Notes under the pieces: generated by a model
The model's database searches: none
Told to the model about the DNA's origin: nothing
What the model saw: only the letters and a program-made list of their open reading frames with translations
Made by a program: the position numbers and the translations under genes
Assembly: GCA_040758355.1 (NCBI GenBank)
Contig: JBFLWF010000004.1
Span: 61,174-125,173 of the forward strand
Source: Nitrospirota bacterium
Lineage (GTDB): Bacteria; Nitrospirota; Thermodesulfovibrionia; Thermodesulfovibrionales; Dissulfurispiraceae
Length of the DNA: 64,000 bases
Reading direction: 5' to 3'
Part shown: positions 28,377-41,627 of the stretch, in pieces
Position numbering within the stretch: position 1 is the first letter of the stretch
How the letters are laid out: every line of letters starts with the position of its first letter

Positions 28377-28679
28377 ATGACACTTGGCATACTTGTTACT
28401 ACCGACAAATACAGGGATGATGTTGTGGGCATCACAGAGGCAGCAGTTGGCAGGGGACATCGGGTTGTTCTCTTTTTCATGGATGAAGGCTGCCGGTTGA
28501 TAACAGACAGCAGAATTGTTTCCCTCAAAGACAGAGACGGCGTTTCCATGAGTCTCTGTGACTTTAACCGGAAGAAGATGGGGATTTCTGATGAAGAAGT
28601 TCCAGAGGGGATTATCTGCGGAAGCCAGTATGACAATGCGGTTATGAACAGGGAATCGGATAAAGTGATAGTTCTTTAG
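28377..28679 (+). CDS. DsrE/TusD-like sulfur relay protein
   Basis: GHRVVLFFMDEG, conserved-position Cys in SLCD, GSQ...SDKVIVL terminus. Confidence 0.8.
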   Translation: MTLGILVTTDKYRDDVVGITEAAVGRGHRVVLFFMDEGCRLITDSRIVSLKDRDGVSMSLCDFNRKKMGISDEEVPEGIICGSQYDNAVMNRESDKVIVL

Positions 28680-28750
28680 CTGATAGCTGATAGCTGATAG
28701 CTCATAGCTGAAAATAAATAACTATGAGCTATGAGCCATGAGCCATGAGC
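28677..28750. repeat. Inverted heptamer arrays (TAGCTGA)n / (YATGAGC)n
   Basis: Visible tandem 7-mers; arms partly complementary (GCTCATAG / CTATGAGC). Confidence 0.85.
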
Positions 28751-29016
28751 AAAAGAAAATAGCGGTAATTGTGAGGGAAAGACAGTCCGAGGCTTTGCGC
28801 ATGGGCATAGGACTTTCAGTGCTAAATGATGTGGATATATACATATTTGACAGAAAACTTGAAGCATCCGATGATATTTCATTAAACCTCGAAATGATCA
28901 AAGAAATGAGATTGTGCCTCTATACAAATACTGCTTTAAATGAAGGTATAGAGTATATTCCAACAGAAGATATTGCGAAAAGACTTCTAAAATATGATAA
29001 TATTTTGCCGTATTAA
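28738..29016 (+). CDS. DsrF/TusC-like small protein
   Basis: KKIAVIV...SEALRMGIGL...YDNILPY, DsrEFH-fold pattern; operonic with the DsrE-like gene. Confidence 0.6.
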   Translation: MSHEQKKIAVIVRERQSEALRMGIGLSVLNDVDIYIFDRKLEASDDISLNLEMIKEMRLCLYTNTALNEGIEYIPTEDIAKRLLKYDNILPY

Positions 29017-29018
29017 TA

Positions 29019-29186
29019 ATGAAAATACTTCATATATTAAAGACAGAACCCGAAGACAGCGTTAAGAAGATAATCGAAGAACATAGAAAAGGCAATGATG
29101 TGGAAGTCCTTAGCATGAATGAAAATAAAAATTACGACCTGATTGTAGAGTTTATAGAGAAGGCAGACAAGGTCATGGTCTGGTAA
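29019..29186 (+). CDS. DsrH/TusB-like miniprotein (55 aa, absent from the ORF track)
   Basis: MKILHILK...NYDLIVEFIEKADKVMVW*; starts 2 nt after the upstream stop. Confidence 0.75.
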   Translation: MKILHILKTEPEDSVKKIIEEHRKGNDVEVLSMNENKNYDLIVEFIEKADKVMVW

Positions 29187-29228
29187 AACAAGCCTTTGGC
29201 TTGTCAATAAACAATACAGGAGGTTTAA

Positions 29229-30326
29229 ATGGAGGGGATACCACAGGCAAGCATTATGGTCTTGCTCAGCGGTGTGCTGGTAGGCGTTTTGCTCGGTTTT
29301 GTGCTTCAACGCGGCAGGTATTGAATGAACTCAGCGTTCAGAGACGTGATCTTTGTAAACGATATAACATTGCTGAGGGCATGGCTTCTGGCATTGGTAA
29401 TTTCTATTATCGGTGCTAACTTTATTGAGGACATTGGACTTATGGGTGCTGACGGCTTAAGGCGTCAGGCATTTGCCCCTGTTGCAGCCATTGTTGGCGG
29501 CTATATCTTCGGTCTCGGAATAGTGAGGGCAGGCGGATGCGGCAGCGGCGTTCTGTACAAACAGGGTGAAGGGCAATTTGCTGCATTTGTTGCTGCACTC
29601 GGTTTTGGTGCAGGGCTTATAGCGACAATGCATGGCCCGCTTAAGCCTGTAATGAAGTTTTTGAAAAGCTATAAGATGTCTGTAGGTACGGATGCGGATG
29701 GCGAACCAATAATGAGCCCTGCATTATGGGATATATTTGGAGGCGGAAATATCAAGTGGATAGTTATTGCTGTGATTGCAGCGATAATAATTCCCATTGT
29801 GCTTAAGGGCAGGCCGTTTGCAAAAGGACCCAAGAAGGGATGGTCATGGTCATTGGGTGGGTTTATACTCGGATTTGTCGTCATCTTTGCCTGGTGGACA
29901 TCTTACTATTGGGGTGGGCAGGCAAGGGGACTTTCATTCTCCGGCCCGACATCTGATTTCTTTTTATTTACTCTTATTGGAAACAGTCAGGCGCCCTTTG
30001 ACCCGATGTTCAATATCTTCGGCATAGGCATAGCTACATGGAGCGCACTGTATGTTATAGGTGTTCCGATAGGTGCATACATTAGCTCAAGAGGTCTCGG
30101 TGAATTTAAATTAACTGCTCCAAAGGACCCGAGCGAACTGGTGAGGGTATTTACTGGAGGTATTATCATGGGATTCGGCGGCGCAGTTGCGGGTGGCTGA
30201 ACTGTGGGTCATTCCTTGACAGGTATGTCAAGTCTGGCTTTACAGAGCATAGTCGCTACGGTGTTTATAATCCTCGGCAACTGGACAATGACTTACTTCA
30301 TGTTCATAAAGCCGATGAAGGATTAG
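29229..30326 (+). CDS. YeeE/YedE (TsuA-like) sulfur-compound transporter, predicted selenoprotein with two Sec (U32, U324), 365 aa
   Basis: GGAGG SD + ATG 29229. One frame through TGA 29322-29324 (LQRGRY-U-MNSAFRD) and TGA 30198-30200 (AVAGG-U-TVGHSLTG) to TAG 30324-30326. Both TGAs are at family Cys motifs and are followed by hairpins. Confidence 0.88.
29335..29361 (+). promoter_or_regulatory. Candidate bacterial SECIS for U32
   Basis: CGTT-CAGAGA-[CGTGA]-TCTTTG-TA-AACG; apical loop starts 21 nt after UGA and has G at position 2. Confidence 0.6.
30206..30240 (+). promoter_or_regulatory. Candidate bacterial SECIS for U324
   Basis: Perfect stem CTTGACA-[GGTA]-TGTCAAG (30215-30232) on a lower GGGTCA/TGGCTT stem; loop starts 22 nt after UGA. 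Confidence 0.8.
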
Positions 30327-30436
30327 CGGGCAAGAGGGAAGCGGAAATTCCCCTTTGGGAATCGGTTTCCTGTTTTAGGAAAGAGATTTGTTGTTGAAAA
30401 CTTTAAGTTTGTTGTAAAATTAAGCAAATGCATGCA

Positions 30437-30452
30437 TGGCATGTTAATTGCT
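30437..30452 (+). promoter_or_regulatory. sigma54 -24/-12 promoter
   Basis: TGGCATGTTAATTGCT, near consensus, 30 nt upstream of CDS 30483. Confidence 0.8.
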
Positions 30453-30482
30453 AAAATAAATAACGAAAGGAGGTGAAGTTGG

Positions 30483-30707
30483 ATGAAGAAGGTTTTAGCC
30501 CTGATCGTAGCACTGCTCTTCGTATTCGCTGTCTCAACAGTAGCTTTCGCTGCAGAGAAGGCAGACGCCCCTAAGGCTGAGAAGGCAGACAAGAAGGCAG
30601 ACAAGAAGGCAGACAAGAAGGATAAGAAGGACGAGAAGAAAGACGAGAAGAAGGAAGATAAGAAGGACGCAGCACCAAAGAAGAAGAAAGCAATCGAGGG
30701 CTGCTAA
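30483..30707 (+). CDS. Small secreted Lys/Asp/Glu-rich protein ending in IEGC
   Basis: AGGAGGTG SD, signal peptide (AFA-A), ADKK/DEKK repeats, single terminal Cys; own promoter and terminator. Confidence 0.85.
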   Translation: MKKVLALIVALLFVFAVSTVAFAAEKADAPKAEKADKKADKKADKKDKKDEKKDEKKEDKKDAAPKKKKAIEGC

Positions 30708-30722
30708 TTCAGTTAACAATAA

Positions 30723-30757
30723 AGGGTGGAAGCTGAATGCTTCCACCCTATTTTTTT
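30723..30757 (+). terminator. Rho-independent terminator
   Basis: AGGGTGGAAGC-TGAAT-GCTTCCACCCT followed by A and T7. Confidence 0.9.
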
Positions 30758-30771
30758 GACCAAAAAGAAGA

Positions 30772-31518
30772 ATGAGGAACTGGAAAGACAATATTTATTT
30801 CATTCTTGTTGAACCGAAAGAATCGGGCAATATCGGCGCATCTGCAAGGGCGATAAAGAATATGGGGTTTAAAAACCTCTGTCTTGTAAATCCTCCGTCT
30901 GTTATTACCGACGAGGCAAGGTGGCTTGCGTGCAATGCCCTCGATGTCCTGAATTCTGCAGAGATCTTTAACAGCCTTACAGATGCTGTAAAAGACAAGC
31001 CTATTATCGCAGGGACAAGCCGCAGAAAAGGCCGCCGAAGGGGTGTTTTCCTGAATGTTGAGGAAGGAGCTGGACGGCTTCATGACATTGCCCTGAAGAA
31101 TAAAGTGGCTATCTTATTTGGCAGAGAGGATAGAGGGTTATATAACGAAGAAGTTGAAGAATGCGGATTTCTTATCACAATACCAACCAGCAAGGAGCAG
31201 CCTTCATTGAATTTAGCCCAGGCAGTATTGATTGTCGCATATGAGCTTTCAAAATCAGAATACAGCGTTCAGCAGTCAGCAGTCAGCAGTCAGAAATCAA
31301 AGGCTGAAAGACTCTCAAGTCATAATGAACTAACTGCCTTATATTCAAGGATATCGAAAATATTAAAGCTTCTTGAGTATATTCCTAAAGGCGACAGAAA
31401 CCTTGAAAAGAAGATCATGCAGAACCTGAAGCACTTCATAGGAAGGGCGGGGCTCACTGATTGGGAATTAAAAATGCTGCACGGAATATGCTCGCAGATA
31501 GAAAAGAAGATAAAATAA
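30772..31518 (+). CDS. TrmH/TrmJ (SPOUT) RNA methyltransferase
   Basis: ILVEP...GNIGASARAIKNMG, LFGREDRGL, SLNLAQAV. Confidence 0.92.
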   Translation: MRNWKDNIYFILVEPKESGNIGASARAIKNMGFKNLCLVNPPSVITDEARWLACNALDVLNSAEIFNSLTDAVKDKPIIAGTSRRKGRRRGVFLNVEEGAGRLHDIALKNKVAILFGREDRGLYNEEVEECGFLITIPTSKEQPSLNLAQAVLIVAYELSKSEYSVQQSAVSSQKSKAERLSSHNELTALYSRISKILKLLEYIPKGDRNLEKKIMQNLKHFIGRAGLTDWELKMLHGICSQIEKKIK

Positions 31519-31535
31519 AGGTTGCCCAAGTCAGC

Positions 31536-31702
31536 AAAGCAGGCACGGCTACTAAAGCCTTTATCAATGCGATGAGATTATTTTGCTGCCTGTTTATACT
31601 GCTGAATGCAAAGGGTGATGCTGAATTTGCCCTTAAACAGTGGGAGGGCTCGGCTCTGAGGTATCGCTGATAAAGGCTTCTCACCCATGCCTGCTTTTTT
31701 TT
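31536..31702. ncRNA. Candidate ~165-nt rod-shaped structured RNA or MITE-like element
   Basis: Nested inverted repeats AAAGCAGGCA/TGCCTGCTTT, AAGCCTTTATCA/TGATAAAGGCTT, GCGAT/ATCGC and TGTTTA/TAAACA. Confidence 0.4.
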
Positions 31703-31716
31703 CTGCAGGTGTTTCC

Positions 31717-31941
31717 TTATTTCTGCAGTCTCGGTTTTGCCCCTAATTTATACAGGATGTTTGCCATGAGGCAAAAGCCTGTTAGGGCGAATATAATTAA
31801 GTTTACTCCAACAAGCCCTGTTAAAATCAACCAGTACGGGCTGTGGATAGCTGCCAATATAGCGCTGGATAGGGCAAATATGCCTCCTATGAGCCACGTC
31901 AGCCTCTCCAGATACCAGCTATCGGTTTTTGCGATATACAT
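31717..31941 (-). CDS. DUF2892 (YgaP-like) small membrane protein
   Basis: LERLTWLIGG...VGVNLIIFALTGFCLMANILYKLG; start moved to ATG 31941 (GGAGG SD). Confidence 0.85.
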   Translation of the reverse strand: MYIAKTDSWYLERLTWLIGGIFALSSAILAAIHSPYWLILTGLVGVNLIIFALTGFCLMANILYKLGAKPRLQK

Positions 31942-31960
31942 CTTATGCCTCCTGTTTTTG

Positions 31961-34900
31961 TTATTTAGGGATGAAGGACATTGATTTGCTTTTATATACA
32001 TAATAAAGCACAGGAACCATTGTCCTTGAAAGCAGTGTTGCTGCTACTTCTCCTGCCATCAGCGAAATCGCCATTCCCTGGAATATCGGGTCAAATAGTA
32101 TCACCGATGAGCCCACGACAACTGCAGCAGCAGTAAGTAGCATTGGCCTGAACCTTATTATTCCTGCCTGCACAACCGCCTCTTTGAGCGGCACTCCTTC
32201 CGAGAGCTTCAGCTCTATGAAGTCAACGAGTATGATCGAATTCCTTACAACTATTCCTGCTCCTGCTATGAACCCTATCATCGATGTAGCGGTGAAGAAT
32301 GCCCCCATGATGGCATGTCCCGGAAGTATTCCGACAAGCGAAAGAGGAATAGGGGCCATTATCACAAGGGGGATCATGAATGACTTAAACCATCCAACAA
32401 CCATTACATATATCAAGATCATAACCGCTGCGAATGCTATCCCTAAATCCCTGAATACCTCATATGTGATGTGCCATTCTCCGTCCCACTTCATGGAATA
32501 TTTATCCTCAAGCCATGGTTGTATTGCAGAATATTGTTTTAATCCATATCCTTCGGGAAGCTTTAGTTTTTTGATGGCATCCTTCATCTTCAATATGGCA
32601 TACACAGGGCTTTCTTCAGTCCCTGCAACTTCGCCTGTGACATAGACGACCCTCTTCAGGTTTTTTCTGTAGATTGTCTTATCCTCGATGCCTTCTCTGA
32701 CTTTTACAAGCTCGGCAACGGGAACCTGAATTCCTGATTGTGACAGGACCGTTATTTCCCTTAAATCATTTATGCTCGCCCTCTGGGAAATTGGAGTCCT
32801 CAGATGCAGTTCCACCGGCTCTTTATCCTTCTCGATGTGCGCAAGGCCTGCAGAAGCGCCGTTTAAGACCATATGGAGCGTCTGTGCCACTTTTTCCGTG
32901 TCTATTCCATGATATGCAGCCTTTTCTTTATCGACCTCGAATATGAGCTTCTTCTGGTCATCCTCCACATACCAGTCAACATCAACCACTCCTTTTGTGT
33001 CTTCGAAGACGTTTTTAATCTGTTTTGCAATATCAATCTGCCTGTTGAAATCAGGGCCATAAATTTCTGCAACGAGGGTGCTGAGGACAGGCGGGCCAGG
33101 AGGTATTTCTACAACCTTAATTTTTGCATTGTATTTATCACCTATTTTTTTAATCTCTGGCCTCAGCCTTTTTGCAATTTCATGGCTCTGCGCCTTCCTT
33201 TCATCTTTAGGAACAAAGTTCACCTGAATGTCTGCAACATTGCTCCCTGACCGCATAAAATAGTGCCTCACAAGGCCGTTGAAATTAAAAGGCGCTGCTG
33301 TGCCTGCATATACCTGATAGTTTGTGACCTCAGGCACTGTCTTTAGATATTCTCCTATCTCCCTCGATAATGCAGCACTCTTTTCGAGGGTTGTGCCTTC
33401 CGGCATATCGATGATCACCTGAAGCTCGCTCTTGTTGTCGAATGGAAGCATCTTTACAGTGACGAGTTTAAGGGGAACAAGCATGAATGCAGCTCCCAGT
33501 AAAAGCATGACAATGCCTAAAAATAGCGTTCTCTTTTTTCCGTTTTCAAGAAGTCCTCTGAGATTTCTTTCATAAGCTCTGTTAAGAGCAGCAATTATCT
33601 TGTTTTCTTTTTCTTTGCTGACTGCTGACTGCTGACTGCTGACTGCTGACTTGCGGAGCACTATATAGCTCAGCCACGGACTGATGATGAATGCAATGAG
33701 CAATGAAAGGAGCATTGCTGCCGATGCGCCAACCGGGATGGGGCGCATGTAAGGCCCCATCAGCCCTGAGACGAATGCCATTGGAAGGAGAGCTGCAATA
33801 ACCGTAAATGTGGCGAGTATCGTGGGATTGCCCACCTCATCCACGGCAGATACCGCTGTTTCGGTATCGACCTTTCCCATCTTGAAATGGCGGTGTATGT
33901 TTTCCACAACAACAATGGCATCGTCGACAAGGATACCGATAGAAAATATGAGTGCAAAGAGAGTGACCCTGTTTAAGGTATATCCGTACATGTAGTTCAC
34001 GAGTATTGTAAGTGCAAGTGTTACAGGCACTGCCACGCCTACAACTATTGATTCCCTCCAGCCCAGTGCAAGGGCTATGAGGATTGTTACGGAGATGGCG
34101 GCAATGAACATATGCTCGAGGAGTTCATCCGACTTTTCCTTTGCAGTGTCTCCATAGTTTCTCGTGGGTGTTATCTCGATGCCGGATGGTATGACATTGC
34201 CCTTGATTGCCTCTATCTTTTTTAATGCCCTTTCTGCAATGTGTGTGGCGTTTGTGCCTTTCTTTTTTGCTATGGCGATGGTTACTGCTTCATATGTGCC
34301 TGTCCCCGGGGGGTTCGCGGGGGAGATTCCATCTCCCCCGCGTTTAGCAGGGCCAAATCCCATGAATACATAGTTCGCAGGCTCTTCAGGGCCGTCGGTT
34401 ATTTTTGCCACTTCCCTCAGATATACAGGCTTTCCATTGAATACACTCACAACCACATTCCCAACTTCCTGTGCGTCCTTGAGAAATCCGCCTGTCTCAA
34501 CGAGTAATTCTTTATTTGATGAAGGGAATGCACCTGATGGCAGGACAAAGTTTGCCTTCTGGAGAATATCTGTTATCTGTAAAGGAGAGACATTGTATGC
34601 CCTCAGCCGTGAAGGCTCTAAATTTATCCTTACCTGTCTTTTCTGCCCTCCGATTATGTTGAATTCGGCTATATCACTGTCTTTTTTTAATTCATCAGCG
34701 ACCTCAACCGCGACCCTTCTTAATTCATAGCCTGTATACCTGTCGCTCCAGAGGGTGAATGAGAGAATCGGGACATCATCTATGGATTTCGGTTTTACAA
34801 GGGGCTGCGACACTCCATGCGGAATCTTATCGAGATTAGACCATAATTTGTTATAAAGATTGACAAGACTCTTCTCCATATCTTCGCCCACATAAAACCT

Positions 34901-35197
34901 CACAATGGCCATGCTCATGCCCGGCTTTGATATGGAATAGACATACTCAACGCCCTTTATCTCCCAGAGGAGTTTTTCCATGGGTTTTGTAACCCTTTCC
35001 TCAACCTCTTTTGCTGATGCCCCCGGATAGGAGACAAAGACATCTATCATTGGCACTACTATCTGAGGCTCTTCTTCCCTCGGAGTTACTATTACAGCGA
35101 ATACGCCGAGTATGAGTGAAGCTATGACTATGAGTGGCGTGAGCTTTGACTTTATAAATGCCTTTGCAATCTTGCCTGCTGTGCCTATTACTTCCAT
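31961..35197 (-). CDS. RND efflux permease (AcrB/AcrD/AcrF family)
   Basis: [41 protein letters not shown]. Confidence 0.95.
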
Positions 35198-36288
35198 TAT
35201 TTAATGATTCCTCCGTCTACAGCCTTTTCAATCCCATCGACGATTATTTTTTCTCCGCCGCTCAATCCTGATAAAACCTCTATCTGTTCGCCGTATTTCT
35301 TTCCTGCCTTTATCAGGCGGTATGTTATGACTCCTTGTTTATCCACAACATAAACCCCAACAAGCTGTCCCTTTTCGACAATTGCTTTTTGAGGAGCGAG
35401 TATCGACTCTTTTTTGCCTTCGGGGATGAGAACCTTTCCGTAAATTCCTGTTTTTAATGAAGGCATTTTCAGATCAACCTTAATGAGAAATGTCCTTGAC
35501 ATAGGGTCAACTGCAGGGATGATCTCTGATATCCTGCCCTTTGTTTCCTGCCCTATGGAGTCAATGATCACATCAACGGGCATTCCTATTTTAAGTTTTC
35601 CTGAAAGCCTCTCATCAACATTCGCCTCTATCCTGAAATACGAGTTGTCTTCCACGGTTAAAATCGGTATGCCGGGAACAGCCATGCTGCCCAGTTCTAT
35701 TTTTTTCTCTGTTACGACCCCTGATGTGGGTGCAGTTATTCTCGTAAATCCATGATGTACCTGTGCCTCTGCAAGCATTGCCCTTGACTTTTCGTATTCC
35801 ATATCAGCGACCTTTTTCTGGGTCTCTATCTGGTCTATCTCCTGCTGCGAAATGGCCTTTTCGTCATGAAGCTTTTTATATCTCTGGTACGTTATATCCG
35901 ATAAAGACTTATTCTGTTTTGCAGCCTCAACAGCCTTCTCTGCTGCCCTGACCCTTTGTGCGACATCCCTGTCATCTATGGTCATGAGCACCTGTCCGGC
36001 ATGAACTCTGTCGCCTTCTTTCACTTTTACCGATGTAACAGTTCCCATTACCCTGCTTGCTATGACGCTTATAGTCTTTGCCCTGACCGTGCCCGATGTT
36101 TCGTAGTATTCATCGACCTGCACAGGGTGTATTTCTGTCATGGTTACTCCTGTTACTGCCTGCCTCTTTACCTCTGCAGTGCCGGGTTTGACCTTGTCAT
36201 TGCAGCTATGCATCAAAAACAGAGCAGCTAAAAATATTATGGATAAAAGCCCTTTCATGGTAGATATCCTCCAGACTTTATTGTTCAA
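35197..36288 (-). CDS. RND periplasmic adaptor (MFP)
   Basis: Lipoprotein-like N-terminus, lipoyl half-motifs ([16 protein letters not shown]), VDPMSRTF. Confidence 0.95.
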
Positions 36289-37669
36289 TTTTTAAATCCC
36301 TTAGAATTGTCCCGCTTTCATAACTCAGATTGACCACTGCAATCCTGTATTCGTTCTCCTTTGCCACGAGGTTTGCCCTTGCGTGGTCAAGGCTTACCTG
36401 CGCATCCATTAAATCTACAATAGGCGATAATGCATTCTCGTATCTTATTTTCACAAGTCTTTTGCCCTCTTCTGCGGTCTTTAATGCAGCCTTTGACAAT
36501 TCAACATTTTTCCTTGCCTCTTCTGCACCGAGATACGCCTCATAAACCTTGAACGCAACTGCCTTTTTTAGTCCGTTGAGATATTCTTCCGTCTCTGCCG
36601 CTTTATATTTTGCCTTCGACCTTTCATATTCTCTCTTTGTGCCGTCAAACAATTCCCATCGAAGAAACGCCATGAGCTGCCAACTGTCGCCTTCCGAGCC
36701 AAACGGCCTTTTGTGGTCATTGAGCTGGTATGTACCGCCTATGCCTATGGATGGAAGATAGCCCGATTCTGCGATCTTTATGCTGTTTCTGGCATTCTGA
36801 TGCCGGAGTTCGAGGGACTTGATATCCTTTCGTGACAGGGATGCATTGGTGTAATAATCGATGCCCATTGCTGTGAATTCTGGGTTTTCATCGATTGAGT
36901 CAACAGATTCCATGATGCCTAAAAGCAGCCCCAGCGCCCTTTTTGCGACATTGAGATTTTTCTGCGCACTCACGAGCCTTTGCTCTGCATCTGTAACAGA
37001 TGTGGATGCCCTGAGGGTATCGGAATAAAGACCTAAGCCTGCCTTGTATCTCAGTTCGGCTATCCTCAGGTGCTCTTTTGCATCCTCCACAGCCTTTCCT
37101 GCAACCGTAACATGCTCCTTTGCCGTATGAACCATCAGGTATGTCTGAACAACCCTGAAGGTTATTTCTTCCTTCTTCCTTATAAATTCCTCGCCCTTTG
37201 CAGAGAATTCATTTTTCGATATGTCGAGTCCGATATTTGCCTTTCTTACAAATAAAGGCTGTTCAAATGAAAGGGATGTCTGGAAATCGTTTATCGGTTT
37301 TGGGTCATTTAACGATGTTATTGCAAAATCGGACTGTGCAAAGCGTTCCTGATTAAGTTTTGCCATAAAAGAATATGTCGGACTGTTTGTCCTCATGTAT
37401 CTTTCCTCGAATGTTATCTTCGGAAGCAGGAAGCTCCGCGCAACCCCTATATCTTCTTTCTGCGCAGAGAGGGAATTTTTAAAGGCCAGCACCTCATGGT
37501 TGTTCTCAAGTGCGGTTCTGATTGCATCCGGAAGGGAGACCTGTTTTTCAGAAGCAAAGACAACAGAAGGCGATAGGCAATAGGCGATAGGTAATAGAAA
37601 CAGACAAAAAACAAAAACCCTCTGCCAGTAACCTATAGCCCATTGCCTATAGCCTATTGCCTTAAACAT
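36278..37669 (-). CDS. TolC family outer-membrane protein
   Basis: Two OEP repeats; operonic with MFP and RND genes. Confidence 0.93.
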   Translation of the reverse strand: MFKAIGYRQWAIGYWQRVFVFCLFLLPIAYCLSPSVVFASEKQVSLPDAIRTALENNHEVLAFKNSLSAQKEDIGVARSFLLPKITFEERYMRTNSPTYSFMAKLNQERFAQSDFAITSLNDPKPINDFQTSLSFEQPLFVRKANIGLDISKNEFSAKGEEFIRKKEEITFRVVQTYLMVHTAKEHVTVAGKAVEDAKEHLRIAELRYKAGLGLYSDTLRASTSVTDAEQRLVSAQKNLNVAKRALGLLLGIMESVDSIDENPEFTAMGIDYYTNASLSRKDIKSLELRHQNARNSIKIAESGYLPSIGIGGTYQLNDHKRPFGSEGDSWQLMAFLRWELFDGTKREYERSKAKYKAAETEEYLNGLKKAVAFKVYEAYLGAEEARKNVELSKAALKTAEEGKRLVKIRYENALSPIVDLMDAQVSLDHARANLVAKENEYRIAVVNLSYESGTILRDLKIEQ

Positions 37670-38081
37670 AACGCCCTCCGCTTTTCTTTTTCATTTTTTG
37701 CTTCATGAATGCCTTGAATGTCTCCATATCGCATTTACCTGTCCTCTTCTGGAAATCTTCGCATTCCGTCAGAGACTTGATATCCTTCAGTAAAACCCTA
37801 TCATCTTTTAAAAGCTCTTTCAATACTGATAAAACGAGCATGTTTTCTTTGGTGAGATTTTTCTTGATTCTGTAAAACATGAGTTTTCCATCCCTTCTTC
37901 CTGCAAGAAATCCTGCCTTTGCAAGGAGGGAGAGGTTTCTCGATATGAGCGGCTGCGACATATTCAACACGCCCATTATCTGGCATACGCATAACTCCCT
38001 TTTTTCGAGGAGCATGAGTATCCTGAGCCTTGATTCATCGGATAGGAGCTTGAATATTTCCGTGATTTCTTTCATAAACAT
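37662..38081 (-). CDS. ArsR/SmtB family transcriptional regulator
   Basis: FKLLSDESRLRIL...ELCVCQI...SQPLISRNL; extra C-terminal Cys residues. Confidence 0.93.
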   Translation of the reverse strand: MFMKEITEIFKLLSDESRLRILMLLEKRELCVCQIMGVLNMSQPLISRNLSLLAKAGFLAGRRDGKLMFYRIKKNLTKENMLVLSVLKELLKDDRVLLKDIKSLTECEDFQKRTGKCDMETFKAFMKQKMKKKSGGRYV

Positions 38082-38214
38082 ATTTATATATGATTATATG
38101 AAAATTTGTCAAGAAAAAAAATTATTGCATCGCTCAATAAAAAACAAAGCTATTTCAAAATGCATCAATTAAGAAACGGTTGTAAGCCCAAGCATCTAAA
38201 GTTTAAATTTGAAG

Positions 38215-38243
38215 TTGACAATATCAGGCAACAGAAGTAAAAT
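38215..38243 (+). promoter_or_regulatory. sigma70 promoter of the first multiheme cytochrome
   Basis: TTGACA-N17-TAAAAT. Confidence 0.75.
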
Positions 38244-38445
38244 TCTTTAGGAAAATAATGACAGGCAAGGCTTTGTCTGTATTATTCGAGGGGGATAGCA
38301 AAAAATTAAATCGCCTTGGTTGGAAATTAAGTTCCCGATTAGATTCAATATTTGGGAACCGAAACAGGGGGAGGTGATGCATATCGATAAGCCGCACTGG
38401 AGGGGTTCAGTCAAGTAAGTCCAAGAATTTCAAAAAGGAGGGTTT

Positions 38446-39732
38446 ATGAGATTTCTTAAGTTGATTCTGGTTTTGCTTTTCATTGCTGTGCCGCTCGTAG
38501 CGTTTTCAGCAGAAAAGGCAAAGACCATCGACGAACTCGCAAAGATGTACGATGTTTCTTCATGCAAGCAGTGCCATCCAAAGGTTTTTGAAGAATGGGA
38601 GAAGTCCTACCATGCAATATCGCTTGTTGGCTCACCCCGTACCATGGCTACCATAGCAGGTACTGTAAAAGACGGCCTAATGAAGGAATATACAAAGGCC
38701 GGGATTAAGGACATAAAAGATATAAAAGTAGAGCATATGATGATCTGCGCTAAGTGTCATCTCCCGCAATTGAAAGACGCAACAGATGCAGTTGCTCAGG
38801 AAATTGCAAAGGCTGCAATCGACGGTGCTGCTGGCGATGAGGCTGCACAGGCAAAGCTCAAAAAGATTGGGATCAACTGCCTTATCTGCCATAACCAAAA
38901 GGCACTTATCCACAAGTGGACTGACGGCGAGCCAGAAGCCGGTGTTATTTACGGCAACAAAGAAGGCGCCCATGGCGATGCAAAGTTCAAGGCACTAAAA
39001 AAGAGCCCGATAATGAAGGAGTCAATCCTCTGCGGCCAGTGCCACGGTCTTGGCCCGAACTTTGATTTGACAGAACCAACGCAGTGCGCAACTCTTTATG
39101 GAAGCTATCTGCATTCATATGTGCCTTCGGGAGGCTCAAAGACATGTCAGGAATGTCATATGGACAAGGGGCACTATATGCCTGCTTACAGGGATCCTGA
39201 TCAGGCAAAGAAGGCTGTGAGCGTGGATGTAGATGCAATGGGTTATTACTTCCTGCCAAAGGCCGGGGATTCCATTCCAACTGCAAAGGTTACCGTAAAA
39301 ATGGTAAGCAAGGCAGGTCACAGAATCCCTGATGGCTGACCATCCCCTAACAGGCTGGTCCTGGATGTGACCGCTAAGACAAAGGATGGAAAAGAGATAT
39401 TCAATGCATCAAAGATTTATACACCGCAGTCTCCTGCAAAAGGCAGAGGAGACAAGGTGGTTTATGGTCCTCACAGGAAGTCAGGCATGCTTGCTGACAC
39501 AACCCTTCAGCCCGGCAAACCAGTAAAAGAGACCTTCGAGATTAAATTCCCTTACGAAGATGTAGAAAAAGAAGGCAAGAAAGTAAGGGATGTTAAGGCA
39601 AAGGAGATTGATGTAACAGTCAAGCTCTGGCATTTGCCTGCCGGCGGCAACCACAGGGATGATAAGGCTACCCCTGTGAATAAGGCCAAGTACCTATTCT
39701 TTGAAACAACAAAGACAGTTACAGTAAAATAA
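38446..39732 (+). CDS. extKL: Pentaheme c-type selenocytochrome, ExtKL-like, copy 1 (U298, 428 aa)
   Basis: Signal peptide and 5 CxxCH. TGA 39337-39339 in GHRIPDG-U-PSPNRLVLDV reads in frame into ORF 39367-39732. Hairpin CATC..CAGG-[CTGGT]-CCTG-GATG follows the TGA. Confidence 0.88.
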
Positions 39733-39745
39733 CTGTATCAATTAC

Positions 39746-39782
39746 ATATATCCGACCCCGTGATTCACGGGGTCGGATATAT
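39746..39782. terminator. Perfect 17-bp hairpin after cytochrome copy 1 (no U-tract; terminator or stabiliser)
   Basis: ATATATCCGACCCCGTG-ATT-CACGGGGTCGGATATAT. Confidence 0.6.
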
Positions 39783-39796
39783 ATCTTAAATCAGGA

Positions 39797-40111
39797 GTGT
39801 TGTTAATGTTTCGTTTGATCTGTTTGTTGATAGCTGTCTTAATTATTTTTGGCCCTGTTGCCGTGAACGCAGAAACAAAACAGGCAAGGGGGGTCATCAA
39901 TCTTACCGGAGGCGGTCTCTGTCAGAACAGCGCAATAACTATTATGGTAGAAGAAGTTTCCAAGCTTAAGCCAGGAGATATTCTTACCGTAGTAATAGAG
40001 ACAGAGAATAAGCACCTCATTAAAGCTGCCATAGCACTCGAAAAACTCCCGGTTGTTTATGAAGAAATAACCGATATGGATCTAACCCGTTTTATAATCA
40101 AGCTAAAATAA
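39797..40111 (+). CDS. Secreted TusA/SirA-like protein
   Basis: Signal peptide (AVNA-E), then INLTGGGLC...SKLKPGDILTVVIE...RFIIK, a TusA-fold pattern. Confidence 0.6.
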   Translation: MLLMFRLICLLIAVLIIFGPVAVNAETKQARGVINLTGGGLCQNSAITIMVEEVSKLKPGDILTVVIETENKHLIKAAIALEKLPVVYEEITDMDLTRFIIKLK

Positions 40112-40199
40112 ACCAGCCTATTTATAATCACATTCATTTTTTGCAATCCCCCTATTTCTTCAGGTTTTTATTAATAATCTAATATCCTAAACTTTTAAT

Positions 40200-40229
40200 T
40201 TGACAATATCTTATACCTACAAGTAAAAT
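40200..40229 (+). promoter_or_regulatory. sigma70 promoter of the second multiheme cytochrome
   Basis: TTGACA-N18-TAAAAT; shares TTGACAATATC...AAGTAAAAT with the 38215 promoter. Confidence 0.7.
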
Positions 40230-40334
40230 CTGCCCCAAAAGTTTTAATTTTAGAAGCATAGAGGGGTGATGTCTATAGGAAATATGTAATGTGGATAGCA
40301 CTTCATTCTAAAATTCATTAACAGGAGGGGATTT

Positions 40335-41627
40335 ATGCGATTATTGAGATTCATATCAGTCTTACTTTTTATTGTATTGCCGATGACGGTATTCGCAGCT
40401 CATCATGAGGGGATGAAGAAGGCAAAGACGATAGACGAACTCGCTGCGATGTATGATTCATCGAGCTGCAAGACCTGCCATGAGAAGGTTTATCAGGATT
40501 GGGAAAAATCCATCCATTCCCGCTCAATTTTCGGAACAGGAAGGACTGCTGCAACAATTAAGACCACAATCGAAGTTGGATTAAAAGGCTGGGATTATTC
40601 GGGAGTTAAAAAGCCGGAAGATGTGAAAGTGAAACACTTGATGATATGTGCAAAGTGTCACTTGCCTCAGCTTCAGGATGCTGAAGACAGCGTTGCTCAA
40701 GAAATCGTAAAGGCAGTATACGCATATTCTGCTGGAGATGAAAAGGCAGAATCAACACTCAAGAAGCTGAGCATCAACTGCATGGTATGCCATAACCGAA
40801 ATGCAATCATTCATAAATGGGTTGACGGATTCCCTGAAAAGGGCGTTGTTTACGGCTCAAAGGATGGCGCTCATGCAGACACTGCCAATCCAAAGATGAA
40901 GAAGAGCCCTATAATGGGCGAGTCCATTTTATGTGGACAGTGCCATGGCCTCGGTCCTAACTTCGAACTCGAAAATCCTTCACAGTGCGGAACGCTCTAT
41001 GGAAGCTATCTCTGGACATATCAGGCAGAAGGAGGCACAGAGAAGTGTCAGGACTGCCACATGAGAAAGAGCGGTTTGGGACACAATATGCAGAGCTACA
41101 GAGACCCTGGCATGGGCAAGGCTGCTGTGAAGTTCGATGTTGAAGCCTATGGACATTACTGGAGGGACGGTGCAAAGATAGTGCCACAGGCATTTGTTAA
41201 GGTTGAAATGACCAACAAGACCGGTCACACAATTCCGGACGGCTGACCAACCCCGAACAGGCTGGTACTGGAAGTGACCGCAAAGACACCTGATGGAAAA
41301 GAAGTTTTCAAGAAGTCAAAGATATATATGCCTGTACCTCAGCAGCTTGGCCGTGGCGACAGAATGGGCAGAGGCCCATACGAAAAGAGCGGTATGATCC
41401 GCGAGTCAGGCTTGCCTCCACATAAGACCGTAACAGAAAAGTTCGAAATCAACTTTCCGTTTGAGGATGTAAAAGAAGGCGACAAGAGTGTAAGGAAGAT
41501 TCTTGCCCACGATATGACCATTGATATAGAACTCTGGTATCTGCCGTTCGGCGTGAAGGACGAAGGAAACTCCTTCCTCTGGCAGAAGGTCACAAAAGGT
41601 ATAAGCATCAGTAAAACAGGGAAGTAA
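40335..41627 (+). CDS. extKL: Pentaheme c-type selenocytochrome, ExtKL-like, copy 2 (U304, 430 aa)
   Basis: Signal peptide and 5 CxxCH. TGA 41244-41246 in GHTIPDG-U-PTPNRLVLEV reads in frame into ORF 41274-41627, at the same position as in the paralogue. Confidence 0.88.

Follow-up and report, generated by a model that had tools for sequence, protein, structure and literature searches.

Selenocysteine codons, putative sulfane-sulfur genes and a Gly-Cys-ended secreted peptide in a 13 kb block of a Dissulfurispiraceae genome

A 13 kb block in the genome of a Nitrospirota bacterium (Thermodesulfovibrionia; Thermodesulfovibrionales; Dissulfurispiraceae; assembly GCA_040758355.1, here G000) encodes a YeeE-family transporter with two selenocysteine (Sec) codons, a trio of small DsrE/F/H-like proteins, a secreted ExtJ-type peptide that ends in Gly-Cys and two multiheme cytochromes of the MccSep type. 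The window, by which the whole stretch of DNA analyzed is meant, comprises 64,000 nt of contig JBFLWF010000004.1 (positions 61,174–125,173, forward strand), and the block occupies positions 28,377–41,627 of the window (Table 1). A preliminary description had proposed a selenium-dependent sulfur-trafficking neighbourhood here, and every element that it named was found at its position through the sequence, the open reading frames and Pfam and NCBIfam scans: the trio, with three genes on the + strand in the same orientation as yeeE; the double-Sec YeeE; a Cys-terminal protein with a signal peptide behind a -24/-12-type sigma54 site; and an ArsR–TolC–MFP–RND–DUF2892 operon on the - strand (38081–31717), divergent from two Sec cytochromes. 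The four Sec codons that it had counted in three genes also hold, as the TGAs lie at conserved Cys/Sec positions and recur in relatives; because of this conservation and recurrence, and because selA, selB and tRNA-Sec are all present in G000, they are not attributed to chance. The marks of a bacterial selenoprotein, namely a UGA at a conserved Cys, a SECIS element (selenocysteine insertion sequence) and the machinery for Sec, were all found.

For comparison, 151 genomes of the same order were used and linkage distances were tallied across them; draft assemblies in this set mean that linkage is undercounted. The genome of the window is 99% complete and encodes dsrAB, four yeeE genes and seven tusA genes. 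Signal peptides were assigned by eye, and statements on published systems refer to the accessible parts of the papers cited. The block adds three features to known modules that were not found in the searches run: a Sec–Cys–Sec YeeE, a portable Gly-Cys-COOH tail and a secreted Cys/Sec protein with a predicted TusA fold. The literature searched, in which subscription journals were largely not included and which may therefore have missed published parts, held no description of a double-Sec YeeE, of an ExtJ function or of the Gly-Cys tail.

Table 1. Features of the block in window coordinates, with one further tail-bearing gene of the same genome.
Feature	Position	Strand	Basis
DsrE type II (YTD-cluster DsrE), 100 aa	28377–28679	+	Fold, synteny, published YTD alignment
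Putative DsrF-like subunit (YTD conserved hypothetical protein), 92 aa	28738–29016	+	Position and PMC13293266
DsrH-like subunit (YTD conserved hypothetical protein), 55 aa	29019–29186	+	Conserved; similar proteins in PMC12998232 supplement alignment
YeeE/TsuA-family transporter, Sec32-Cys104-Sec324 (TGA at 29322, 30198)	29229–30326	+	PF04143
SECIS-like hairpin for Sec32	29339–29355	+	Codon conservation
SECIS-like hairpin for Sec324	30215–30232	+	Folding energy, compensatory pairs
Sigma54 -24/-12 promoter-like site	30437–30452	+	TGGCA-N-TTGCT spacing
Degenerate ExtJ-family secreted protein, 74 aa, K/D/A linker, KKKKAIEGC-COOH	30483–30707	+	NF040942 relatives
Intrinsic terminator-like hairpin	30723–30749	+	Terminator scan
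TrmJ-type SPOUT methyltransferase	30772–31518	+	TIGR00050
TolC–MFP–RND–YgaP(DUF2892) efflux cassette	31717–37669	-	Pfam/NCBIfam
ArsR/SmtB repressor, LCVC motif and two C-terminal Cys	37662–38081	-	NF033788
MccSep/ExtKL pentaheme selenoprotein, copy 1 (TGA at 39337)	38446–39732	+	NF040886, 535 bits
Secreted protein with putative TusA/YeeD fold, 104 aa, Cys42	39797–40111	+	Predicted fold
MccSep/ExtKL pentaheme selenoprotein, copy 2 (TGA at 41244)	40335–41627	+	NF040886, 592 bits
Secreted monoheme SoxA/TsdA-type cytochrome c, tail KKKKAIEGC	G000:C25:29791–30189 (L192:7792–8187)		Tail pattern

The yeeE gene carries in-frame TGA codons at positions 32 and 324, and its product matches PF04143 (E = 1.7e-70) over the full length only with read-through. 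Sec32, Cys104 and Sec324 align with C22, C91 and C293 of S. thermophila YeeE in a full-length alignment (E = 5e-48; PDB 6LEO), which places each TGA at a channel cysteine; C22 is the residue on the cytoplasmic side of that protein and C293 is its periplasmic substrate site (PMC7449682). The three-residue channel relay is thus common to the window and to the YeeE/TsuA structure (PDB 6LEO; PMC7449682), whereas the first and third cysteines have become Sec and the partner genes are those for a type II DsrEFH trio and ExtJ in place of YeeD. A 2026 catalogue contains a YeeE selenoprotein with a single Sec, located in a GUxSG motif (PMC13188914, PMC9312934); this is the middle motif, whereas the Sec residues of the window occupy the first and third sites. 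The Sec–Cys–Sec protein is a new Sec form of YeeE. Sec at both gates of the channel argues for covalent thiol/selenol chemistry, whereas the models proposed so far invoke hydrogen bonds only.

A yeeE match was present in 96 of the 151 genomes. After two distant hits had been dropped, the 94 tabulated genomes comprised 15 with two TGAs, 18 with one and 61 with none. The TGA of the single-TGA form marks the periplasmic site in all seven genes read, and the middle motif is GGCGSG in every double-TGA gene where it was read. A tree of 43 YeeE proteins groups its 14 double-Sec members with one single-Sec protein in a clade (100/100) whose sister clade contains Cys proteins; the single-Sec type also stands on three other branches. 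A Cys paralogue accompanies the double-Sec gene in nine of the 15 genomes, G000 not being among them. The YeeE of the window is far nearer to the thiosulfate transporter TsuA (252 bits) than to the models of selenium-type YedE (83 and 41 bits); the cut-offs of the TsuA equivalogs were not reached (252.5 bits with a cut-off of 400, and 149 bits with a cut-off of 645; NF052577/NF041049).

Evidence for recoding was also sought at the nucleotide level. Across 14 aligned double-TGA genes a single codon is kept at 10 of 160 invariant residues, and these ten consist of both TGAs, the five codons 38–42 behind the first TGA, the codon of the loop Gly that follows the second TGA, and two more. The hairpin assigned to Sec32 has a folding energy no better than that of the Cys forms, and its support is this codon conservation. 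The hairpin assigned to Sec324 has a mean folding energy of -16.1 kcal/mol in 22 TGA genes versus -10.2 kcal/mol in 19 Cys genes, and two compensatory pairs occur in it among seven chosen sequences. The published YedE alignment row for Dissulfurispira thermophila (PMC12998232) starts with MNSAFRD, just past the position of the first Sec; judged from its sequence, it looks like a truncated annotation in which the product is cut at the first UGA. YedE, a marker gene of sulfur disproportionation, would then have been analyzed there as a truncated product.

The three small genes in front of yeeE belong to a described cluster. The DsrE model, the only subunit folded, has a pLDDT of 95 and matches DsrE of A. 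vinosum (2HY5_A; TM-score 0.88, E = 1.3e-5). Its Cys61 is shared by all 16 sequences compared, aligns weakly (E = 0.38) with the active Cys78 of the A. vinosum protein and is, from the sequence, likely to be the persulfide site. The DsrF-like subunit is kept beside dsrE and yeeE in relatives; profile searches gave it no Pfam or NCBIfam match and no significant PDB match. Close homologues of DsrE, of the 55-residue subunit and of YedE are contained in the published YTD alignments (PMC12998232 supplement; compared by eye). There is no tusA gene within 28377–30707, all seven of G000 lying elsewhere. From the DsrE fold, Cys61 and the published homologues, the left half of the block is identified as a YTD cluster that has no tusA.

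Trios of this kind have been described as the type II DsrEFH of the YTD cluster, and transfer from TusA via DsrE to DsrC has been demonstrated in vitro with homologues from cable bacteria (PMC13293266). The same paper lists D. thermophila as 'YeeE-DsrEFH type II', with a cluster that also has no tusA. In Desulfolithobacter the YTD proteins are more abundant during disproportionation (PMC9751629); a term search of the accessible text of a Dissulfuribacter proteome paper returned no ExtK, ExtJ or selenocysteine (PMC13490349). With the published type (PMC13293266, PMC12998232, PMC9751629) the window shares dsrE and two small genes beside yeeE, the DsrE fold with its active Cys and dsrAB in the genome, and it differs in having no tusA inside the cluster, a two-Sec YeeE and extJ behind yeeE.

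Several smaller observations concern this cluster. Heptanucleotide repeats (GCTGATA, ATGAGCC) lie between the first two genes of the trio (28679–28737), and similar inserts occur in trmJ and in the RND gene. A second YTD-like locus of G000 (G000:C15:35141–44200, L001) contains yeeE, tusA, a histidine kinase, a sigma54 regulator, a secreted rhodanese and an archaemetzincin, and continues with a second type II DsrEFH trio, a secreted 158-residue protein that ends in PPGVGGC and has no family match, yeeE and tusA. Rhodanese genes stand in a duplicated tandem at G000:C9:58600–61500. In another genome (L085, G035:C5:33000–45000) one stretch holds canonical DsrE/DsrH-family genes, tusA and a Cys-type yeeE together with Rieske/cytochrome b genes, a psrABC-like operon and extJ.

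The peptide gene behind yeeE encodes an ExtJ-type protein. ExtJ (GSU2938) has no assigned function and its gene is flanked by extI and extKL in Geobacter (PMC5877670). The peptide of the window is below the cut-off of the family model NF040942 (21.9 versus 52.5 bits), while position-equivalent proteins in relatives pass it (78 and 70.5 bits) and contain a small beta domain. In the window and in G125, G133 and G149 a charged linker stands in place of this domain, and the signal peptide and the tail survive. What is common to the window and to ExtJ (NF040942; GSU2938, PMC5877670) is accordingly the signal peptide, the Gly-Cys-COOH end and the orthologues above the cut-off, the beta domain being the part missing from the window. 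A search of the PDB with the ExtJ profile gave nothing significant (best, ribosomal S1, E = 0.016), and an Atlas search with ExtJ returned unnamed clusters only, under 0.9.

The strict sigma54 pattern matched 30 sites in the genome versus two to nine in five shuffles, and a site of this type lies upstream of eight of 29 ExtJ-like genes. The sigma70 and terminator scans gave counts on a par with shuffles (26 versus 24 and 12 versus 12, respectively). A contig from one RNA run (6% of words) spans 30461–30752, i.e. the peptide gene from the sigma54 site to the terminator; RNA contigs show neither ends nor level, and it was not used as evidence.

In the 19 genomes with both genes, extJ lies within 5 kb of yeeE in 18 (three families). 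A scan of named genomes was also made, in which the 80 best ExtJ loci were picked by the tail pattern, so that conservation of the tail among them is circular. In this sample, 24 loci lie behind yeeE, 23 behind a gene for a secreted thioredoxin-like protein and ten behind a psrABC-like operon (molybdopterin/4Fe-4S/NrfD). A survey of a second phylum (301 genomes), which used the ExtJ family model, gave matches in 25 genomes, and 27 of the 28 proteins end in EGC or QGC; five of the genes have a porin-like gene on one side and mccSep on the other, and four stand behind a thioredoxin gene. The order porin-like gene–extJ–mccSep is reported for Geobacter (PMC5877670).

The tail also occurs outside this family. 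When the DNA of the 151 genomes was searched with a pattern for the tail followed by a stop codon, 34 of them yielded 52 matches in all, and the reversed control yielded none. Another 22 loci with the tail were examined. In 14, including one in G000 (Table 1), the product is a secreted monoheme cytochrome of the SoxA/TsdA type that has an additional invariant Cys; the others are further small cytochromes, a lipoprotein, ExtJ-like domains and loci left unassigned. In alignment, the invariant Cys86 of the cytochrome corresponds to a Cys of SoxA that lies in the first heme domain and is a heme ligand there.

SoxY, the C-terminus of which is GGCGG, serves here as an analogy, and Pfam and NCBIfam scans gave no SoxY match for the peptide. 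SoxYZ with SoxAX, SoxS/DsbA and SoxT would work in a like manner, through a periplasmic C-terminal Gly-Cys arm, and the partners are alike: YeeE-type transporters, periplasmic thioredoxins and SoxA/TsdA-type hemes (PMC11582611). The system of the window differs in that there is no SoxY family match and no SoxZ, the Cys is the very last residue, and the tail system is found in sulfur reducers and disproportionators. On this analogy, the ExtJ-type peptide may be a SoxY-like periplasmic carrier of sulfane sulfur, a proposal for which we consider the balance to be nearly level. Of all the elements of the block, this peptide connects the two halves best.

Some ExtJ-domain proteins end in GY. Such proteins (L083, L086, L243, L244, L057) are encoded beside an FAD oxidoreductase and a B12 radical SAM protein, often with a second radical SAM protein and a glycosyltransferase, and at several of these loci also with yeeE, tusA or rhodanese genes; these neighbourhoods are possibly tail-modifying systems. 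G106 has, at the trmJ position, a peptide that ends in GGY, and a Sec-type yeeE was not found in this genome. A short protein with a CxC-type end and no NCBIfam match is encoded directly behind yeeE at L053:13221–13448 and L058–L061 (families f2, f3 and f11).

The right half of the block carries the two cytochromes. Both copies exceed the NF040886 cut-off of 250 bits, contain five CxxCH motifs and have Sec in PDGUP; they are 56% identical to each other. Copy 2 matches the MccSep structures 9WT8/9WT9 (E = 1e-187) with the catalytic residues in register, and its active-site motifs are also present in copy 1. MccSep is the periplasmic polysulfide reductase of Geobacter sulfurreducens and is required for S0 respiration; homologues have been reported in Thermodesulfovibrionia, and the enzyme reduces selenite in vitro with a sevenfold preference for polysulfide (PMC13510729). 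The identity of MccSep is an already known part of the block: R83, C239, U325, K372, PDGUP and the five CxxCH motifs of the Geobacter enzyme (PMC13510729; 9WT8/9WT9) are matched. By analogy with this homologue, both copies would reduce polysulfide. The window differs from Geobacter in its two tandem paralogues with the secreted TusA-fold gene between them and, relative to the ext cluster, in the absence of extH, extI and extM–S and in the location of extJ behind yeeE, at a distance of 7.7 kb. In the sigma70 scan, with its total on a par with that of the shuffles, the two top-ranking sites are found upstream of the mccSep genes.

Near mccSep in other genomes, a NapH/MauN-like membrane ferredoxin is encoded behind ArsR or trmJ (L038:7699–8364, L041:8515–9246, L114:5340–6005, L037:8675–9319); it is a candidate electron donor of MccSep. 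G000 contains homologues of this ferredoxin of 25–28% only. At L051, at L069 and in eight more genomes of family f4, yeeE is directly followed by a distant Cys-type MccSep-like gene (∼30–34% identity), an independent pairing.

The secreted protein encoded between the two cytochromes was modelled with a pLDDT of 82. Its top structural matches are the YeeE–YeeD fusions 8J4C/8K1R (E = 6.5e-3, TM-score 0.73), and TusA was also matched; all E values were 0.007–0.02, i.e. above 0.001, with PrmA scoring alike. No Pfam or NCBIfam match was obtained, and PF01206 is absent from the copy of the window and from those of three relatives. Of the secreted TusA-like protein in the preliminary description, the reading frame stands, with a YeeD/TusA-like fold as a candidate assignment. 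The gene occurs in ten of the 151 genomes; seven of the nine strong matches adjoin mccSep, and the N-terminal Cys42/Sec is kept in all nine, two of them (G019 and G132) having TGA there. An Atlas search with the protein returned nothing. On the basis of the predicted fold, it is a candidate for a new selenoprotein subfamily and for a helper of MccSep.

The linkage of these parts varies among relatives. The yeeE and dsrE genes are linked in 23 of 81 genomes (six families). G043 and G116 retain the whole gene order, as do G054 and G006 without mccSep on the contig; G125 has no RND cassette, and G086 and L114 have a compact dsr–yeeE–extJ–napH-like–arsR–mccSep block with neither trmJ nor RND. The idea that the SPOUT gene trmJ splits two unrelated halves, raised in the preliminary description, was rejected, since these compact blocks join the halves without it. 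The sulfur-trafficking neighbourhood drawn at the outset is kept for the trio, YeeE, the Cys-tailed peptide, the MccSep pair and probably the TusA-fold protein, and is given up for trmJ and the efflux operon. As for conservation in relatives, the close pairing of yeeE with extJ was borne out, whereas the linkages of RND and of yeeE with mccSep are mostly local and the co-occurrence statistics do not discriminate. We favour, at about even confidence, a family-level mosaic in which two sulfane-sulfur modules and a passenger are brought together, with an ExtJ-type carrier between the modules.

In such a mosaic, YeeE would move polysulfide or sulfane sulfur inward along Sec324 on the outside, Cys104 and Sec32 on the inside, after which a TusA encoded elsewhere would pass sulfur to Cys61 of DsrE and on to DsrC and DsrAB, the latter working oxidatively. 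The two MccSep enzymes would reduce periplasmic polysulfide to sulfide, possibly helped by the secreted TusA-fold Cys/Sec protein. The ExtJ-type peptide, with its basic flexible tail and persulfidated Gly-Cys-COOH, might hand sulfur to YeeE and to polysulfide reductases in the manner of the SoxY arm; neither the TolC–MFP–RND–YgaP cassette nor trmJ would be a required part. Periplasmic polysulfide would be divided between two branches, one of reduction by MccSep and one of oxidation through YeeE, TusA, DsrEFH, DsrC and DsrAB, as would fit sulfur disproportionation. An earlier proposal had run a path from periplasmic and outer-membrane carriers and reductases through YeeE to a cytoplasmic relay: the import and relay set is retained, whereas MccSep, since it uses periplasmic polysulfide, forms a branch parallel to YeeE import and not an upstream step, and apart from TolC the block has no outer-membrane polysulfide carrier or porin. 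ExtJ and the TusA-fold protein are small candidates for two gaps in the YTD papers, namely the cargo of YeeE and the presenter of that cargo. A wider proposal, which we put forward only tentatively, is that the (E/Q)GC-COOH end of ExtJ is a portable periplasmic sulfane arm that feeds MccSep, Psr-type molybdoenzymes and YeeE and so splits polysulfide between MccSep and reverse Dsr. If this were true, sulfur reducers and disproportionators would have a reductive-side counterpart of SoxY, and S0 disproportionation would be selenium-dependent.

Several findings weigh against the mosaic and the proposed carrier. The steps of the mechanism in this organism are predicted from sequence, linkage and homologues. 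The yeeE and mccSep genes lie within 15 kb of each other in 15 of 61 genomes, of which five belong to the family of the window and ten are the f4 pairs with the distant Cys-type gene. In G006, a complete genome of the same genus, the left half and RND are kept and there is no MccSep match, so MccSep is dispensable in at least one such genome. Co-occurrence gave odds ratios of 8.3 for RND with yeeE and 6.9 for mccSep with yeeE; because RND reached values like those of the sulfur genes and related genomes do not count as independent, these statistics are undiscriminating. No convincing operator common to the promoters of the block was found. In addition, 23 of the 80 ExtJ loci have no yeeE, psrABC-like or thioredoxin-like neighbour, and several ExtJ-domain proteins, some of them above the family cut-off, end in GY or have no tail.

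The strongest alternative, to which we assign a minority share of our confidence, is that the YTD and MccSep modules are uncoupled neighbours joined in one family, and that Gly-Cys-COOH is a general periplasmic tag for attachment, dimerization, metal or modification. The linkage of the halves is indeed mostly that of one family and separable, the peptide gene has its own sigma54-type promoter and terminator, the tail is borne by unrelated proteins, including some with no sulfur link such as the lipoprotein, and GY-tailed ExtJ genes lie beside glycosyltransferase and radical SAM genes, as those of a modification tag might. However, the commonest neighbours of extJ in both phyla are sulfur/thiol redox genes of four unrelated kinds, and the commonest fusion partner of the tail that was found is the SoxA/TsdA-type heme domain.

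A second alternative, which we regard as improbable, is a selenium or metalloid island in which YeeE imports selenium, MccSep reduces selenite and an ArsR-controlled RND pump exports the metalloid; the LCVC motif of ArsR, which is of the metalloid-sensing kind, would suit it. YedE relatives are selenium transporters (PMC11582611), ExtI and ExtKL were first linked to selenite and tellurite reduction (PMC5877670), and selenite is a substrate of MccSep in vitro. However, the preference of MccSep for polysulfide and its requirement in S0 respiration (PMC13510729), the nearness of YeeE to TsuA and the local linkage of RND all point away from such an island, and a selenium importer that needs two Sec residues would probably limit itself.

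The remaining genes of the block are regarded as passengers. The trmJ gene, usually found downstream of extJ in the family and absent from G086 and L114, is a housekeeping flank outside the sulfur system. RND lies within 15 kb of yeeE in six of the 54 genomes with both, nearly all in the family of the window, and within 15 kb of mccSep in four of 36, all in that family; ten of the 15 genomes of the same family have no match to this RND. ArsR is divergent from mccSep in G000, G116, G086, G019 and L114, and in the last three of these a NapH-like gene stands behind it instead of the efflux genes. From this synteny, ArsR stays beside mccSep more steadily, and TolC–MFP–RND–YgaP is a swappable passenger behind it. 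In its fullest form, in which the whole 13 kb encodes one conduit under common regulation that leads from the outer membrane into the cytoplasm, the preliminary description is very improbable given these counts, the separable halves and the exchange of the genes driven by ArsR, even with the full order in four genomes (two of them without mccSep on the contig), a conserved Cys in the YgaP-like membrane domain and an RND gene 12 kb from yeeE in G005, which belongs to another family.

The ArsR protein is below the cut-off of the BigR model (44.5 versus 155 bits), and no paper tying a pump of this type to sulfur was found in a literature search that included the accessible part of PMC7315123. As a possible shared operator, a 13 bp AT-rich palindrome near extJ and both mccSep promoters was considered and rejected; it is exact once, has two mismatches twice and occurs in close relatives only. 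Immediately upstream of arsR there is an AT-rich inverted repeat that is conserved. In three relatives (L032:16410–19506, L037:10600–13669 and L049), a cassette for an ABC transporter, which includes a secreted protein, stands between arsR and mccSep.

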